This document shows, in pieces, positions 5,140 through 50,411 of a stretch of 64,000 nucleotides of DNA (position 1 is its first letter; the number at the start of each line of letters is the position of its first letter). The notes under the pieces were generated by a model. It was not told where the DNA came from. It saw nothing but the letters and a program-made list of their open reading frames with translations, and made no database searches. Origin of the DNA: Nitrosopumilus sp. (lineage in GTDB: Archaea; Thermoproteota; Nitrososphaeria; Nitrososphaerales; Nitrosopumilaceae). The position numbers were made by a program, and so were the translations under genes. The stretch spans positions 288,001-352,000 of the forward strand of contig OZ240211.1 in NCBI GenBank assembly GCA_965197525.1, written 5' to 3'.

Positions 5140-7365
5140 CTACACGGAACGGTCTATGTACGCTGTATCGGTGCTTTGCGTGTCGTTGACTAGCACGGAT
5201 AGGCCAAAACCAGAGTCGCGCAACACCTGGTAGCCTATAGGAGATCCTAGTGCGGGTTGGTACCACATCAACACCACCTCGGAGTCTGTGACCTTGGCGC
5301 CTAGTTCTGCTGGCTGGAACAGCGCAGCGTTTGTGACGACAATATCGACAACAAAGCTTGCAGTGGCGATATTACCGGAATCATCGGTGGCAGTACAGGT
5401 AACTGTGGTCCTACCTTCCCCAAACGTCGAGCCTGATGGTGGGGAGCACGACATGTCAACATCTGAGTCTGCTAGGTCAGTCACTGACAGGGCATCAAAT
5501 GTCACCACAGTCGAGTTCCCCTGCATCAACGTTTTGTCTATATTTGCAGGGGCGGGATCAAATACCGGTGGCGTGGTATCCTGCACCGTTACTATCTGGG
5601 TGGCAGTAGCCATGATACCAGAGGAGTCAGTGGCAGTCCAGATCACAGTCGTGTTGCCAACATGAAATGATGCCGTGGCGTTGTTGGTTATGGTTATGTT
5701 AGTGTCAGTGTCATGTGTGGCAATAGCGTTTCCTATGTCAACTGTGGTAAGGGAACTGGTAGCCTCGACTGTTACATCAACAGGTGCCGTTATTCTAAGT
5801 GATGACTGAACCACGGTTATGATCTGGGTACGAACCTGAACCGTGTTTGACGGTTCTGACAGTCTTCCTCCTGTACTGACTGATTTGATCTGATAAGAGT
5901 ATGCTGTGTCTGGTTCCACAGCAGAATCCACATATGTTGTCGCAGTACTGCCGGTATCAGTTACGAGTATCCCAAGAGAGCTAGATGTTCCACGCAGTAT
6001 CTGGTAGCCGGTTACTGGATCTGTTGGGGCATGCCAATTAAGAGTTATTGAGTTTGACGTGGATGTTGTCCTGACATTTGTTGGTGCTGTTGGTCCAGAT
6101 ATTATATTTATGTGAACTGTTGCAGGTTCGCTGCTGAGATGACCATCAAATGCACGAAACGTAAAAGAATCCATTCCCACAGCATTATTGTTTGGGGTAT
6201 ACCTATGCTCACTAGAGTTGATGGAAAATCGATCCAGCGTGCCGTTTTTTGGATCGGTCACTATTGAAAATGACAGGATATCATTTTCAGGATCAGAGCC
6301 AGTCAATGTTATGTCCACCGTTTCACCTGATTGAACAGTCACGGTTTGTGGAGTTGCAGTAGGTTTGAGGGTGACAAAATCCATGCTGTGCATTTTCATA
6401 ATGTTAAATGTTGATGCATACTCCTCGTTCCACAATTTATCAAAGTTTTTGAATGTTCTTGGTTTATCTTCGAGTATCATCATGATCTTATCGCTACCTT
6501 CTGCCATCATATCATGATTGACGTTATCAATGAAATCATGATCAGGGTGTGAAGAATTATCTGTAATGTCCCATAAAGCTGCTGCTACTCTTCCTTCCAC
6601 TGTTTGCCCCACTAGATTTCCATTAAGTATAGTTATAGCAGGGTTATTTATATTCCCAGATAAATCCTCATCATCATCTACAAGTGCAGCTCTCTCTAAA
6701 TCGATATGAGTATCATTATACCATTTGTATACACTAGCATTATCAACTAGACTAGGGACAAAATCCGCCCATCCTTCTGTCCATGCACAACCCTCATTGC
6801 CAGTAGAACCTCCAAAGGTGTGACCACTACAATTGGCGGTTGGAGGAAAGTTTGAACCGTATATACTATTCATAATGTGATGACCGTACTCGTGTAGTAT
6901 TGTAAATCTTCGTTGAGAATCGTCAGAAGTCCCTGGTAGAAGTGGTAAACCGTCAATATATATTGTGTCTAAACTCCGATCGTAAAAACTATCTGTATCG
7001 TCATCGTCCATAGTAAACACTTCAGGATCAGCGCCGCTCTGCCAGTTTACTGGAACTTTGGATATTACAATATTATATTCAGATGAGAAGTGATCATGAG
7101 CGTCTGAAATACTATCTGATATCCAAAGAGCGTTTTGTATATCGCCGTCTTCTGAATCAATCTGGGCGTTTATGAAAAATGCATTAAGATGGCTATTATA
7201 AACTCGATGGAATGATGTACGATACTCACGTTCATCAATATTTTGCACCTTTACATGATCGCCTTCACTGTAAACAGTTGCACGAATACGAAAAACATCC
7301 CCCTCTAAAAGATTAACATAGTTACTCTGAATATAAAAAAACACCATTAGACGAAGTATTACCAC
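5140..7365 (-). CDS. Surface protein segment 2: HEXXH metallopeptidase, Ig/cadherin-like, FN3, HYR and FN3 domains
   Basis: ILHEYGHHIM zincin motif with downstream WTEGWAD; FN3 motifs; HYR-like DTTPPV...FGEGRTTVTCTATD. Confidence 0.75.
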   Translation of the reverse strand: MVILRLMVFFYIQSNYVNLLEGDVFRIRATVYSEGDHVKVQNIDEREYRTSFHRVYNSHLNAFFINAQIDSEDGDIQNALWISDSISDAHDHFSSEYNIVISKVPVNWQSGADPEVFTMDDDDTDSFYDRSLDTIYIDGLPLLPGTSDDSQRRFTILHEYGHHIMNSIYGSNFPPTANCSGHTFGGSTGNEGCAWTEGWADFVPSLVDNASVYKWYNDTHIDLERAALVDDDEDLSGNINNPAITILNGNLVGQTVEGRVAAALWDITDNSSHPDHDFIDNVNHDMMAEGSDKIMMILEDKPRTFKNFDKLWNEEYASTFNIMKMHSMDFVTLKPTATPQTVTVQSGETVDITLTGSDPENDILSFSIVTDPKNGTLDRFSINSSEHRYTPNNNAVGMDSFTFRAFDGHLSSEPATVHINIISGPTAPTNVRTTSTSNSITLNWHAPTDPVTGYQILRGTSSSLGILVTDTGSTATTYVDSAVEPDTAYSYQIKSVSTGGRLSEPSNTVQVRTQIITVVQSSLRITAPVDVTVEATSSLTTVDIGNAIATHDTDTNITITNNATASFHVGNTTVIWTATDSSGIMATATQIVTVQDTTPPVFDPAPANIDKTLMQGNSTVVTFDALSVTDLADSDVDMSCSPPSGSTFGEGRTTVTCTATDDSGNIATASFVVDIVVTNAALFQPAELGAKVTDSEVVLMWYQPALGSPIGYQVLRDSGFGLSVLVNDTQSTDTAYIDRSV

Positions 7366-8560
7366 ATCCTATACCGCTGGCTGTACCAGTACTATTATTA
7401 TATATTCCAATACATACCTTGGCAGAATTAACATAAGTCGTATCTCCTTCACCGAAAGGAATTTGATCGTTACGTACCCAAGTGCTTACTAAAAAAGATG
7501 TGGAATGACTGCGAGATGATGAAGATTGCGTTGATGCCCGTTTTGAAAATTCTTCATCTATCTCAGCATCCGTATGTCCTCCATCACGAAGGATCTGTCG
7601 GAAATCAGTCATATTCAGATTCAGGTGTGCACTCATCTGTTGGACAAAGTCTAGGGACTCCCCAACTCTTTGCTTAGGGTCAATGCCTTCAAAGTATGCT
7701 GCAAAGAATTCGGTGAGTAGATCTAGTGACGGTGGGACGTACCAGGAAGCGTCACCCCAGTCCTCATCATCAACCCAAGATTCAGAATCACTTTGTGTGC
7801 CCTTGGCAGATTTTTGCCCTAATGATGGGTAAAGTTCGGGATATCTAGCCATGCGTTCTGACCACAGCATTGTCTCTTCATCGTCAAGGTATATTCCAAG
7901 GTATCCTCCAGTCCGGTAGTAGGATATACCAGTTATGTGGTAATGTCCTTCATTGACAGCCCTAACTTCAATAGTATACGTCTTTGACTCGTCTGTATCA
8001 AGAGGTGTGAATTCTGTATAGTAGTAACGAAGTATTTCGTTGCCTGTTCTGTCTAACTCAATTTCATACTCAAGTCCACCAGAGTCAACTATCTCAAATC
8101 CAGAAGGTATTGTCCATCCGGTTATAAGATGTATACTGGATCTATTCTCTGTTGTATTGGTAACTGGTAGGCCATTATTAGTGATGTTTATAGTCACTGT
8201 TGCAGTCTCGTTAATATTTGGCAGTCGTGATATGCTTACTTCTGGTATTGTATGGCTTGATGTCCTAGGTGCTGTTTGATCAATCGATCCTACAGGACGT
8301 TCATAGGGTGCGGTCTCATATGACAGTATAAATCCTCTCTGTTTCAAGGGATCGACTGACGATGTAAAGACACATGCCGGTAAACCGCTTGGAGACTGCA
8401 TCAATACCCTATCATCACGGCATTGTATCTCTTCAATCGACACTCCTGATTCAAATTGTGCGTGTGGCGACTGTATGTCATTGGTATCTGCAAGTGCGGA
8501 AGTCATACTTACACTGAGTGTCAGAATTACCAGTATGGTGATTTTTAGTGTAGATGTCAT
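7322..8560 (-). CDS. Surface protein segment 1: signal peptide and N-terminal region
   Basis: Hydrophobic N-terminus (LKITILVILTLSVSMTSALA), then SPHAQFESGV...IQCRDDRVLM...SGLPACV; TATA-like TTATAT about 25 bp upstream. Confidence 0.7.
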   Translation of the reverse strand: MTSTLKITILVILTLSVSMTSALADTNDIQSPHAQFESGVSIEEIQCRDDRVLMQSPSGLPACVFTSSVDPLKQRGFILSYETAPYERPVGSIDQTAPRTSSHTIPEVSISRLPNINETATVTINITNNGLPVTNTTENRSSIHLITGWTIPSGFEIVDSGGLEYEIELDRTGNEILRYYYTEFTPLDTDESKTYTIEVRAVNEGHYHITGISYYRTGGYLGIYLDDEETMLWSERMARYPELYPSLGQKSAKGTQSDSESWVDDEDWGDASWYVPPSLDLLTEFFAAYFEGIDPKQRVGESLDFVQQMSAHLNLNMTDFRQILRDGGHTDAEIDEEFSKRASTQSSSSRSHSTSFLVSTWVRNDQIPFGEGDTTYVNSAKVCIGIYNNSTGTASGIGCGNTSSNGVFLYSE

Positions 8561-8674
8561 GTTAGATTAACAAAAACATATGATATAAGACTAGGGATAC
8601 TTGGTTCTGTGAAGTTATCGGGAGTTATATGTCAATCCCTAAAATGTATAAACCTCTGAACCGTAAGATATTCG

Positions 8675-9877
8675 TTGAAAGCGATAAAGTCAATATCACA
8701 GAAATATGCGCAAAACTCTGATCTAATGGATATGATGGCTATATTCACAAAGATGGTCAATCATTGCATCAAGATAGGGTTGAAAGAAGACACTCACAAT
8801 ATGAAGAGGTTGTCCATGTTATGTTATCATGAATTACGTAACTATGACATTTTATCAACATACAAGATATGTGCAATATCAAGAGCTGCAGGCATATTAT
8901 CAAACAGAAAACAATCAAACAAACGAGGTGTCAGAATAAGAGACCCAATAGTCAAAAATCCCTTTATGACAAACTGTTACGGCATAAAACACAACGGTGC
9001 ACTACTAACAATCCCATACAAGAAACATAACCCAATCAACATTTTACTCAACGATCACACCCAAAAAATCCTATCTGATCCTGCCTTGACGGTGCGCTCG
9101 TTTTCATTGACTGCTCTGAACATCAGTCTTTGTGTTTCAAAAACAGTGCAAGAGATAGAGTGCACCAAGAAAGTGGGAATAGACAGAAACCTAAGAAATG
9201 TGACGTGTGGGAACGAGGAAGAGGTGACAGTCTACAAGACAAACAAACTGTTATCCATAAAGGAGAACACAATACACGCCAGGGCAGGCTTCCACAGAAA
9301 TGATCGCAGGAAGAAAAATCAGTTCTACAAGGAAAAACAGAGAAGACTGACTAACAGAGCAAAGCAGTACATCCACAGAATCTCAAAGGATATAGTAGAC
9401 AACGCAGTCAAAAACAAGACTGCAATCGTCATGGAAAACCTGAAAGGAATAAGAAAATTGTACCGAAAAGGAAACAGTCAAGGTAACAAGTACAGACGTA
9501 GATTGAACGGGTGGCAATTCTACGAGTTACAACGCCAAGTAGAATACAAAGCCCAATGGGTCGGACTACCTCCAGTCGAGACAGTAGACCCAAGAAACAC
9601 GAGCACGCAGTGTCCGCAATGCGGAAAGAGACTCCAAGAGGACATGCAACAACATCGTAAATTGTCGTGTAATAATTGCGGTTTGTTTATGGACAGGGAC
9701 ATCATCGCTGCCATGAACATATCACGCAAGCTGCCCCCTAGGTTTAGGGGTAGTAGAGGTGACATAGATGAAGCACAGTCCGGCACTTTTGAGCAGGCGA
9801 TGACGGAACCCAGCACACCATTGGTAATCCGAATAGTCGATATGTCAAAGTCAAGTTTAGGGGTTAACTCCCGATAA
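8675..9877 (+). CDS. tnpB: RNA-guided endonuclease TnpB (IS605 OrfB family)
   Basis: RuvC-I VGIDRN, RuvC-II IVMENL, zinc finger CPQC...CNNC, RuvC-III DRDIIAAMNI; TATAAA at 8647-8652 before a TTG start. Confidence 0.9.
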   Translation: MKAIKSISQKYAQNSDLMDMMAIFTKMVNHCIKIGLKEDTHNMKRLSMLCYHELRNYDILSTYKICAISRAAGILSNRKQSNKRGVRIRDPIVKNPFMTNCYGIKHNGALLTIPYKKHNPINILLNDHTQKILSDPALTVRSFSLTALNISLCVSKTVQEIECTKKVGIDRNLRNVTCGNEEEVTVYKTNKLLSIKENTIHARAGFHRNDRRKKNQFYKEKQRRLTNRAKQYIHRISKDIVDNAVKNKTAIVMENLKGIRKLYRKGNSQGNKYRRRLNGWQFYELQRQVEYKAQWVGLPPVETVDPRNTSTQCPQCGKRLQEDMQQHRKLSCNNCGLFMDRDIIAAMNISRKLPPRFRGSRGDIDEAQSGTFEQAMTEPSTPLVIRIVDMSKSSLGVNSR

Positions 9878-9889
9878 CTTCACAGAACC
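9730..9889 (+). ncRNA. Candidate omegaRNA scaffold overlapping the tnpB 3' end
   Basis: omegaRNAs typically overlap the tnpB 3' end; hairpin at 9730-9754 and pairing of TGACATA (9760-9766) with TATGTCA (9841-9847); boundaries inferred. Confidence 0.45.
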
Positions 9890-9917
9890 ATCAACAAGTT
9901 ACAGCTAGTTTGTTGAT
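9890..9917. terminator. Hairpin abutting the right TIR
   Basis: ATCAACAAGTTA-CAGC-TAGTTTGTTGAT forms a 12-bp stem with two G-U pairs. Confidence 0.4.
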
Positions 9918-10131
9918 TGGACATTCCCGATAAACTCGAATCGTCAAATAAAATAACATTTGACGTACTAGCAGTTTAACGGAATATTGGCATTTTTGCA
10001 TACTGTGTTATACATGGCAAATCCTAGAATTATTGTCGCAAAAGTAACTAACGGAACTAAAAGGAATAGGTTGGTTTTGTTTACCACAAGCATCATGGTA
10101 ACATTTGGCTATAAAAATTATCGTCGTCTAG

Positions 10132-10548
10132 CTAGTCTACCATCACAGTAAATGTGCCTTGGGTATGCGAATCGCGTAGCAATTGTACCATCTCCCGAGG
10201 AATCAGATCAGATGCTTTGTCACAACACACAGCCAACGTTCTCGGACACGTAAAATCGCTTTTTCTGATAACGATATCTGTATCGTGAGTCAGTAACAAA
10301 TTTGGGTGACCTGTTCCATTAATGGTAAATTTGTAGTCTTGTACACAAATAGTAATAGTTACTCTAGTATTGGGATCTCGTAGTCGATCTTTGAGTTCTT
10401 GAGGCAACTCATTGCAGCTAGCAGCTGCGTTGACTCCTATAATACAATCTCCACTAGGTGTTAGAGATGACTCTTTTGTAATCTCGATAGTGCGACGATG
10501 GTTTGATCGGATATTTGCATGTCCAAAAAACGAGATCTCAAACTCCAT
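10132..10548 (-). CDS. DUF371 family protein
   Basis: GHANIRSNHRRTIEITKESSLTPSGDCIIGV and CDKASDLIPR motifs. Confidence 0.85.
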   Translation of the reverse strand: MEFEISFFGHANIRSNHRRTIEITKESSLTPSGDCIIGVNAAASCNELPQELKDRLRDPNTRVTITICVQDYKFTINGTGHPNLLLTHDTDIVIRKSDFTCPRTLAVCCDKASDLIPREMVQLLRDSHTQGTFTVMVD

Positions 10549-50240: not shown

Positions 50241-50411
50241 GGTTCTGTTGGGTTATTGAGGGATCAATTCGTGATCTGAAGTCGTCGAGAGCTGGTAAAG
50301 ATCTCTGAAATTTATGCATACGGGAAAAACAAGTGGATCACACTGATTCAGAACGCCTCACTTCACATGGAAAATTCAGTGTGATTGATCCCTCGATAAC
50401 TCCGCAGAACC
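50241..50411 (+). mobile_element. 171-bp MITE with IS6-like 28-bp imperfect TIRs
   Basis: GGTTCTGTTGGGTTATTGAGGGATCAAT versus right-end reverse complement GGTTCTGCGGAGTTATCGAGGGATCAAT (24/28); internal frame GKNKWITLIQNAS. Confidence 0.8.

Follow-up and report, generated by a model that had tools for sequence, protein, structure and literature searches.

The present study analyzed a 64,000-nucleotide stretch of the genome of a Nitrosopumilus sp. (contig OZ240211.1, positions 288,001 to 352,000; hereafter, the window) and characterized an element that carries the nuclease gene tnpB at window positions 8603-9889. The element is 1287 bp in length, has perfect 25-bp inverted ends (GGTTCTGT...), and contains an intact tnpB gene without a transposase gene. 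Based on its anatomy and a census of its copies, we are confident that it is a non-autonomous insertion sequence (IS) encoding TnpB that is moved by an IS6-like DDE transposase encoded elsewhere. The target-site duplication (TSD) of this family is an arbitrary 8-bp sequence, yet the same oriented 3-base motif, W-T-R (W, A or T; R, purine), was present in 47-50 of 50 independent insertions. In this pattern, the function of TnpB in a DDE transposon may have left a footprint at the population level.

Anatomy and copies of the element

An initial annotation made from the sequence alone had described an intact tnpB between exact 25-bp inverted repeats without tnpA, a stop codon inside the right repeat, and a non-autonomous element bounded by these terminal inverted repeats (TIRs). 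The present results agree with this description. Over 26 nt, the two repeat arms (8602-8627 and 9865-9890) pair without a mismatch (100% complementarity), and 25 of these nt are part of the element. Within the window, the 25-nt core GGTTCTGTGAAGTTATCGGGAGTTA is found solely at 8603-8627 on the plus strand and 9865-9889 on the minus strand, and none of 100 shuffles gave any match to it. There is no room for a second gene in the 1287-bp element, which has the following features.

8603-8627, plus strand: left TIR GGTTCTGTGAAGTTATCGGGAGTTA, the perfect complement of 9865-9889 and the left edge of every subfamily-A copy in the genome
8647-8652, plus strand: TATAAA, a TATA-box-like promoter element located 22 nt ahead of the TTG start codon, as read from the sequence
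8675-9877, plus strand: tnpB, 400 amino acids, TTG start, with RuvC residues D170/E254/D342 and the CxxC...CxxC zinc finger intact (open reading frame [ORF] and family models)
9865-9889, minus strand: right TIR, which holds the tnpB stop codon

The encoded TnpB matched the Pfam model Cas12f1-like_TNB (1.3e-20, 73.8 bits; cut-off, 26.3) and the NCBIfam model NF040570 guided_TnpB (121.7 bits; cut-off, 100), and its RuvC and zinc-finger motifs aligned with those of solved Cas12f and TnpB chains. The catalytic and zinc-binding residues D170, E254, D342, C313, C316, C332, and C335 were invariant in an alignment with relatives down to 32% identity. The dN/dS ratio of tnpB between subfamilies was 0.06-0.13, indicating purifying selection. 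The stop codon TAA (9875-9877) is located 12 nt from the element end. All subfamilies share the start position, at which subfamilies D and G have ATG or GTG, and the TTG start of the window tnpB is, as judged from this comparison, real. A TATA-like A/T-rich box is also present at the equivalent place in other subfamilies, about 22-27 nt upstream of the start. Since TATAAA is positioned 22 nt ahead of TTG, a leaderless tnpB transcript is implied, and we infer that this box is its promoter.

The genome is a single contig of 2.21 Mb (39.6% G+C; 98.99% complete), in which tblastn identified approximately 35 full-length tnpB copies plus fragments. Sixteen further copies showed 93-99% identity to the element, with similarity confined to window positions 8603-9889 (query positions 44-1330). 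Wherever the ends of a full-length copy could be located, they were inverted repeats of the GGTTCTGT...ACAGAACC type. At least six subfamilies were distinguished among the copies, and their TIRs all start with GGTTCTG or a one-base variant and diverge after about position 9. Approximately 15 miniature elements (139-851 bp) have the same ends as the full-length copies, and in most of them all that is left of tnpB is its 3' part, starting at about codon 281 or 304. The sequence of the element also occurs in metagenome runs, including sponge metagenomes, and the loose ends of metagenome contigs likewise start at 8603 and 9889.

These boundaries bear on the possibility that an IS200/IS605-type tnpB was nested by chance in an IS6 miniature inverted-repeat transposable element, or that the true ends are hairpins further out (e.g., near 9950). 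The sole lead in this direction was a 9-nt match to the TIR core (TCCCGATAA) at about 9926-9934 in the right flank. All homologous copies end at the TIRs, with similarity stopping at 8603 and 9889, as do the metagenome contigs; TSDs abut the TIRs; the TIR pair also occurs at other loci; the Y1 transposase TnpA was not found in the genome; and the right-flank sequence was found nowhere else in it. The copy census rules this possibility out, and we assign it a negligible probability. The 9926-9934 match was also considered as a degenerate older right end and rejected as a chance occurrence because it spans just 9 nt and similar matches of 14-15 nt are present elsewhere in unrelated genes.

Another element of the host genome is an 851-bp sequence at 883991-884841, which has perfect 25-bp GGTTCTGTAACATTATCGGGACGTG inverted ends, the TSD TATTACTG, and TTA beside the TSD on one side. 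A blastn search of its cargo revealed no similarity to tnpB, the guide RNA of TnpB (omegaRNA), or the transposase.

Target-site duplications and the mobilizing transposase

Direct repeats of 8 bp abut the TIRs of 28 elements in the host genome. Every one of these sequences is different; therefore, they represent independent insertions. In a relative (genome G070, record OZ245003.1), the insertion L142 has the TSD TTATAGAT. The orthologous empty site in the host genome contains a single TTATAGAT preceded by TTA, and the two flank alignments overlap by exactly 8 nt.

The combination of TIRs and a fixed-length TSD is the mark of a DDE transposase, and IS200/IS605 and IS607 elements have neither according to a review (PMC13565253). 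A Y1 transposase (PF01797) and a serine recombinase (PF00239) were both not found in the 98.99%-complete genome, while control genomes gave hits. Seven matches to DDE_Tnp_IS240 in the genome were above the Pfam cut-off. These proteins are approximately 380 amino acids in length and have an N-terminal SWIM zinc finger and a zinc ribbon. The best NCBIfam model of the partner transposases was IS6, which matched over the whole model with 103-121 bits, below the equivalog cut-off of 125.

An intact autonomous element is located at genome positions 746475-748444 (1970 bp; TIR, approximately 30 bp; 8-bp TSD, CTATTGTG). Over 18 nt, its TIR (GGTTCTGTGTAATCTTCG...) and that of tnpB subfamily C are identical. 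GGTTCTGTTAACTTGACGAGTGGTAA forms the end of a second transposase type, and its inner ...CGAGTGGTAA also occurs in tnpB subfamilies D and F. Six IS6-like elements were examined, and tnpB was present in none of them. A complex prediction for the IS6-like transposase and TnpB gave a score of 0.00, which has no bearing either way. The presence of TIRs and TSDs, the lack of a Y1 transposase or serine recombinase, and an IS6-like transposase with a matching 18-nt terminus indicate movement in trans. The conclusion that the element is moved in trans by an IS6-like DDE transposase is well supported, in accordance with the initial annotation, which had proposed an IS6-like enzyme; the 8-bp TSDs point to DDE chemistry, and IS6-like transposases with GGTTCTGT ends are encoded in the genome.

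In the IS6/IS26 family, the TIRs conserve GG at positions 1-2 as well as G at position 7, according to Harmer and Hall (2019; PMC6807381). These authors argued that the archaeal 'IS6' elements, which are only distantly related and for which there are no experimental data, do not belong in the family. Therefore, we refer to the partner as IS6-like; its transposition may be either copy-in or cut-and-paste.

Two side observations relate to the transposases. In the search for a cognate transposase of subfamily A, a near-identical left-type end was noted beside a transposase gene at a locus of genome G007, and the matching right end was not found. In the window, a 171-bp miniature element at 50241-50411 has GGTTCTGTTGGGTTATTGAGGGATC-type inverted ends and no TSD. 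Since its interior corresponds to the 3' portion of a gene for an IS6-like transposase (reading ...GKNKWITLIQNASLHMENSV*), it is a deletion derivative of the autonomous partner, not of a tnpB element.

An oriented motif beside the left duplication

All elements were oriented by tnpB for the comparison of their flanks. The 3 bases directly 5' of the left TSD were TTA, TTG, ATA, or ATG in 28/28 host-genome elements with a TSD, whereas W-T-R was present at the mirrored position after the right TSD in 3/28. An outside sample was drawn from Nitrosopumilus, Nitrosotenuis, and Nitrosotalea genomes and unbinned metagenome contigs (TnpB identity, 36-92%). Among its 22 elements with a perfect 8-bp TSD, 19 had N-T-R and 16 had W-T-R. 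When both sets were pooled (n=50), T was found at -2 in 47, a purine at -1 in 50, and A or T at -3 in 46. No such preference was observed in the TSD itself or in the right flank, and the left and right sides differed (Fisher's test, p = 2e-13). Background frequencies were 8.8% for W-T-R and 14.5% for N-T-R.

The spacing between the motif and the cut was 0 nt in every case. Miniature elements obeyed the W-T-R rule, including a 208-bp element that was oriented solely by its omegaRNA remnant. Furthermore, in several contig loose ends from unrelated metagenome runs, TTG or TTA was present, separated from position 8603 by 8 nt. As a control, we used nine autonomous IS6-like elements with TSDs, in which N-T-R was present on 4/18 sides and on neither side in six of the nine elements.

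If the guide consists of the duplication and the right flank, the target-adjacent motif (TAM) of TnpB must lie at the W-T-R position. On these grounds, it is fairly probable that W-T-R serves as the TAM together with the TSD and flank as the guide. None of the other explanations considered appears to account for the strict orientation of the motif.

One of them assumes that W-T-R is a target preference of the transposase, or of a host cofactor, acting asymmetrically on non-identical subterminal sequences, and that TnpB is uninvolved; the TAM of TnpB may then differ, or TnpB may play no part in site retention. DDE transposases often show weak target preferences, the left and right subterminal regions differ, such that an asymmetric transpososome is conceivable, and no cognate transposase of subfamily A was found in the genome, so that the autonomous controls may not represent that enzyme. 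However, the terminal 25 bp are perfectly symmetrical and the motif is nevertheless one-sided (28/28 versus 3/28), and autonomous IS6-like elements carry N-T-R at the chance level. The controls include the host-genome element with the subfamily-C TIR, while all subfamily-C tnpB copies carry the motif. Moreover, the motif holds across at least six TIR subfamilies and in genomes with TnpB only 40-60% identical, and it is located exactly where a TAM is needed for a guide beginning with the TSD. We consider a target preference of this type to be unlikely.

Alternatively, TnpB may co-select the insertion site, with TAM-bound TnpB, with or without omegaRNA, positioning the IS6-like transpososome so that the cut falls just 3' of the TAM. 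A near-universal motif (50/50 for the purine at -1 and 47/50 for T at -2) is easier to obtain by directed insertion than by the loss of all other insertions, and the fixed 0-nt spacing is also in its favor. On the other side, no element was found that encodes both proteins, and a requirement for co-occurrence was not seen, with many relatives having the transposase without this TnpB. The tnpB-less miniature elements show the motif too, although TnpB could act on them in trans. To our knowledge, there is no precedent for the recruitment of a DDE transposase by a TAM alone. Co-selection of this kind appears very unlikely.

A different motif was noted in genome G021, in which two elements (L071 and L073) have ends of the type seen in the window element (GGT(C/T)CTGTCAAGTTATAG...), 8-bp TSDs, and TnpB proteins 32-33% identical to that of the window. 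Both have ATAT instead of W-T-R 5' of the TSD. There are just two full copies, too few to test for a clade-specific TAM, and ATAT may be another TAM belonging to another TnpB clade.

Predicted omegaRNA

Two features of the omegaRNA were predicted at the 3' end of the element.

9597-9852, plus strand: predicted omegaRNA scaffold core, overlapping tnpB codons about 308-393 (RNAalifold, covariation, and the drop in synonymous divergence [dS])
9853-9889, plus strand: predicted omegaRNA terminal stem, in which the bases following the core would pair with the inner half of the right TIR while the final 6-9 nt (..ACAGAACC) remain unpaired (minimum free energy [MFE] folds of 20 elements)

RNAalifold predicted 65 base pairs from 20 elements, 14 of which showed compensatory double changes. 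This number was higher than those obtained from all 500 column shuffles (maximum, 12). Paired cells accounted for 98%, versus 25-39% with the partners slid. Third-codon-position conservation between subfamilies increased from approximately 0.72 to 0.80-0.94 over the last 400 nt or so of the element. In most between-subfamily comparisons, dS showed a 3-4 fold drop, from 1.07-1.55 in codons 1-280 to 0.32-0.59 in codons 281-395, while dN/dS stayed low in both parts (0.06-0.13 and 0.16-0.30, respectively). With nhmmer, 51 copies of the scaffold were detected genome-wide. The scaffold region is retained in the miniature elements, with TATA-like boxes ahead of it. The omegaRNA region matched no Rfam family; the sole match was a chance hit to a long non-coding RNA (E = 0.19). 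These results predict a structured omegaRNA that overlaps the 3' end of tnpB and reaches the end of the element.

Regarding the terminal stem, its pairing was predicted in most elements. Duplexes with the TIR of the same element were more stable than those with TIRs of other subfamilies (mean, -9.4 versus -7.6 kcal/mol; permutation p = 0.008). Mirror folds of the left end also gave stems of similar energy. Since the left-end mirrors fold alike, MFE alone is no proof of the terminal stem, and we relied on the comparison of self and non-self TIRs.

Proposed explanation

We propose the following arrangement. The window element is one copy of a non-autonomous IS with 25-bp inverted ends. A leaderless tnpB would be transcribed from its TATA-box promoter, and the omegaRNA would overlap the last 280 nt or so of tnpB and exit through the right inverted repeat. 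IS6-like DDE transposases encoded elsewhere, which combine a SWIM zinc finger, zinc ribbon, helix-turn-helix, and DDE_Tnp_IS240 domain, very probably recognize the GGTTCTGT termini and insert the element by an 8-bp staggered cut. The guide would consist of the 8-bp duplication in its right copy and the flank that comes after it, and TnpB would read W-T-R (TTG, TTA, ATG, or ATA) as its TAM. The general idea of the initial annotation, an omegaRNA ending at the right TIR with a flank-derived guide, fits the covariation data and the motif. The empty site that it had suggested as the target (...GGGATACTT|ATCAACAAG) ignores the 8-bp duplication and is not supported; the target of the family would be W-T-R followed by the 8-bp TSD and the right flank.

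A complex of this type would cut the unoccupied allele, in which W-T-R precedes a single 8-mer and the flank, while leaving both junctions of the occupied site uncut. At the right junction, ...AACC occupies the place of the TAM, and at the left junction the match to the guide is limited to 8 nt; therefore, the occupied site would be protected. The transposase itself would have no motif preference, and only insertions with a TAM in the right orientation would persist or multiply. We speculate that retention occurs either by TnpB-driven homing into empty alleles or by the restoration of a donor site emptied by excision. As a whole, we regard this explanation as likely.

Several points weigh against it. 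The case for RNA-guided cleavage, W-T-R as the TAM, and the RNA ends is computational, and TAM-dependent DNA cleavage has the one-sided W-T-R motif as its sole indirect support. If the transposases copy in an IS26-like manner, no empty donor site would be generated, and selection would need homing between chromosomes. The initial annotation had suggested looking for an IS6-type transposase with the same TIR; an 18-nt match to subfamily C was found, but an autonomous element with the subfamily-A TIR, the window's own type, was not found in this genome. The set of autonomous controls was small (n=9: one from this genome and eight from relatives), and T at -2 was absent in three of the most distant relatives. 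Unlike characterized TnpB omegaRNAs, a variable 37-110-nt segment plus the TIR would be located between the scaffold core and the guide; we have moderate confidence in the predicted terminal stem as the explanation for this segment. Contigs from a sponge metatranscriptome run (X6) cover the element, with a higher depth over its 3' part; these RNA contigs cannot show ends, strand, or level, and they were not used as evidence. The 3' skew in depth is also present in DNA runs because of the miniature copies. In addition, no TSD surrounds the window copy itself (GGATACTT on the left versus ATCAACAA on the right), and TAG takes the place of W-T-R at its motif position.

A stronger proposal is that the reading of the TAM by TnpB decides the location of the DDE transposon, either because TnpB directs the IS6-like transposase to cut 3' of W-T-R or because insertions without a TAM are effectively never retained. 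We consider this to be quite unlikely. If true, the directed version would represent guide-independent, TAM-directed DDE transposition, a simple relative of CRISPR-associated transposons, while the other version would make homing by TnpB essential to the persistence of a DDE element.

The role of TnpB is understood in IS200/IS605 and IS607 elements, the transposase of which excises scarlessly and itself picks a TAM-bearing site. The job of TnpB in DDE transposons, whether prokaryotic or eukaryotic (Fanzor), is described as an open question in the review (PMC13565253). The proposed explanation predicts that the TAM is W-T-R, that the guide is the TSD plus the right flank, and that non-TAM insertions are lost or insertion is directed. 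The family may also offer compact archaeal TnpBs (approximately 400 amino acids) with a short predicted TAM and natural mini-elements containing only the omegaRNA.

The window copy

The flanks of the window copy are as follows.

8592-8602, plus strand: left flank, TAG plus GGATACTT, in which the W-T-R and TSD of other copies are absent
9890-9909, plus strand: would-be guide of the window copy, ATCAACAAGTTACAGCTAGT, the sole occurrence in the genome (blastn of all guides against the genome)

Having neither the duplication nor the motif, this copy was probably rearranged; a rearrangement between copies or a change in its flank is the most likely cause. About a quarter of full-length copies lack a TSD. 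In genome G070 (record OZ245003.1), the TSD-less copies L129 (TAGAAACT/TTATGTTA) and L132 (TTATGTTA/TAGAAACT) have exactly reciprocal flanks, which indicates that recombination between copies yields TSD-less cases. The swap between L129 and L132 is also the signature of a recombination event inverting the segment between two copies. The TSD-less copies and this swap are compatible with a cointegrate-forming (copy-in) mechanism, but do not prove one. No reciprocal partner of the window copy was found among the TSD-less copies of the host genome.

Due to the missing TSD and the presence of TAG, the guide of the window copy probably has no valid target, and the initial proposal that this copy could target the empty site is not supported. 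The search for empty sites that it had suggested was successful for the L142 site, whereas the 45 genus genomes and the close relative G070 yielded none for the window copy. In these genomes, only the right side is conserved around the window copy, from about window position 9966 on, and the left-flank gene (7322-8560) has no DNA match, which accounts for the lack of an empty site.

An inverted repeat (ATCAACAA-N12-TTGTTGAT) is present right after the right TIR, at 9890-9917. It is unique in the genome and would form a hairpin inside the would-be guide.

Comparison with known systems

Altae-Tran et al. (2023; PMC10691335) reported six DDE-associated TnpB branches (DDE-1 to DDE-6) with inverted terminal repeats. 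In the available text of that paper, tnpB 3' ends are located 250 bp or less from the transposon end, solo TnpBs have ends nearly identical to those of transposase-bearing systems, from which mobilization in trans was inferred, and IS630 is named as a DDE partner. ISL2, IS630, and IS1031 are named as partners in the available part of the review (PMC13565253). The window tnpB similarly resides in an inverted-repeat transposon with its 3' end within 250 bp of the transposon end. It differs in its IS6-like partner, which is not among the partners named in those parts of the texts, and no element carrying both genes was found here. For the DDE-1 to DDE-6 branches, the available text describes neither miniatures containing only the omegaRNA nor a motif present on one side only, 5' of an 8-bp TSD that varies in sequence, and a literature search on TnpB combined with IS6 found nothing relevant.

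Since the general arrangement, a DDE-linked TnpB with inverted ends, has already been published, the present finding is a variant of it. The initial view that the pairing was undescribed needs to be narrowed accordingly: DDE-associated TnpB is known, whereas IS6 was not found among the partners named in the parts of the literature compared. Within those parts, three features appear to be new: an IS6-like partner, W-T-R as an oriented footprint next to a TSD of variable sequence, and miniature elements with only the omegaRNA. The family may belong to one of the branches DDE-1 to DDE-6 already published.

In common with the solo-tnpB elements of IS200/IS605 (the IS1341 group, e.g., ISDra2), the element encodes a homologous TnpB with the RuvC triad and zinc finger, its predicted omegaRNA overlaps the 3' end of the gene and exits the right end with a guide taken from the flank, and a short motif 5' of the element is a possible TAM. 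IS200/IS605 elements have hairpin ends without TIRs or TSDs, and their Y1 TnpA itself selects the TAM-containing site. In contrast, the present family has 25-bp TIRs and 8-bp TSDs, Y1 was not found in the genome, and the TSD separates the motif from the element. It differs from IS607 in its TIRs and TSDs, and a serine recombinase was not found in the genome.

The family resembles IS6/IS26 in having G at TIR positions 1, 2, and 7, an 8-bp TSD, and a partner with the DDE_Tnp_IS240 domain. Its TSD-less copies and reciprocal flank swaps are also as expected from recombination between copies. Unlike IS6/IS26, the element carries tnpB in place of the transposase, and the partner is a protein of approximately 380 amino acids with an N-terminal SWIM zinc finger that falls below the NCBIfam IS6 cut-off.

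Fanzor in DNA transposons with TIRs and TSDs is a further parallel, namely, a TnpB-type nuclease in a TSD-making DDE transposon with an omegaRNA reaching the transposon end. In Fanzor systems, the 5' TSD is part of the TAM, the 3' TSD is in the scaffold, and TSDs are fixed, such as TA or TTAA, according to the review (PMC13565253). The TSD in the present family is, in contrast, an arbitrary 8 bp, the motif is outside the TSD, and the guide would begin with these 8 nt.

Neighboring sequences

The element is located 42 bp upstream of the start of a gene on the minus strand (7322-8560), and a small conserved ORF is present approximately 125 bp beyond its other side. No tRNA was found near the element. 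The left-neighbor gene encodes a species-specific protein of 412 amino acids with a signal-peptide-like N-terminus, and none of the 45 genomes of the genus searched contained a DNA match to it. The small ORF (9987-10151, probably starting at ATG 10016; ..MANPRIIVAKVTNGTKR..) is conserved at both the DNA and protein levels in most genomes of the genus.

In a viral-fraction metagenome (run X4), one contig (record 17) matched window positions 8400-8570 with three differences, followed by 134 nt that did not fit the window. The point of divergence is located about 32 nt before the left end of the element. This contig suggests the existence of a strain with another arrangement upstream of gene 7322-8560.

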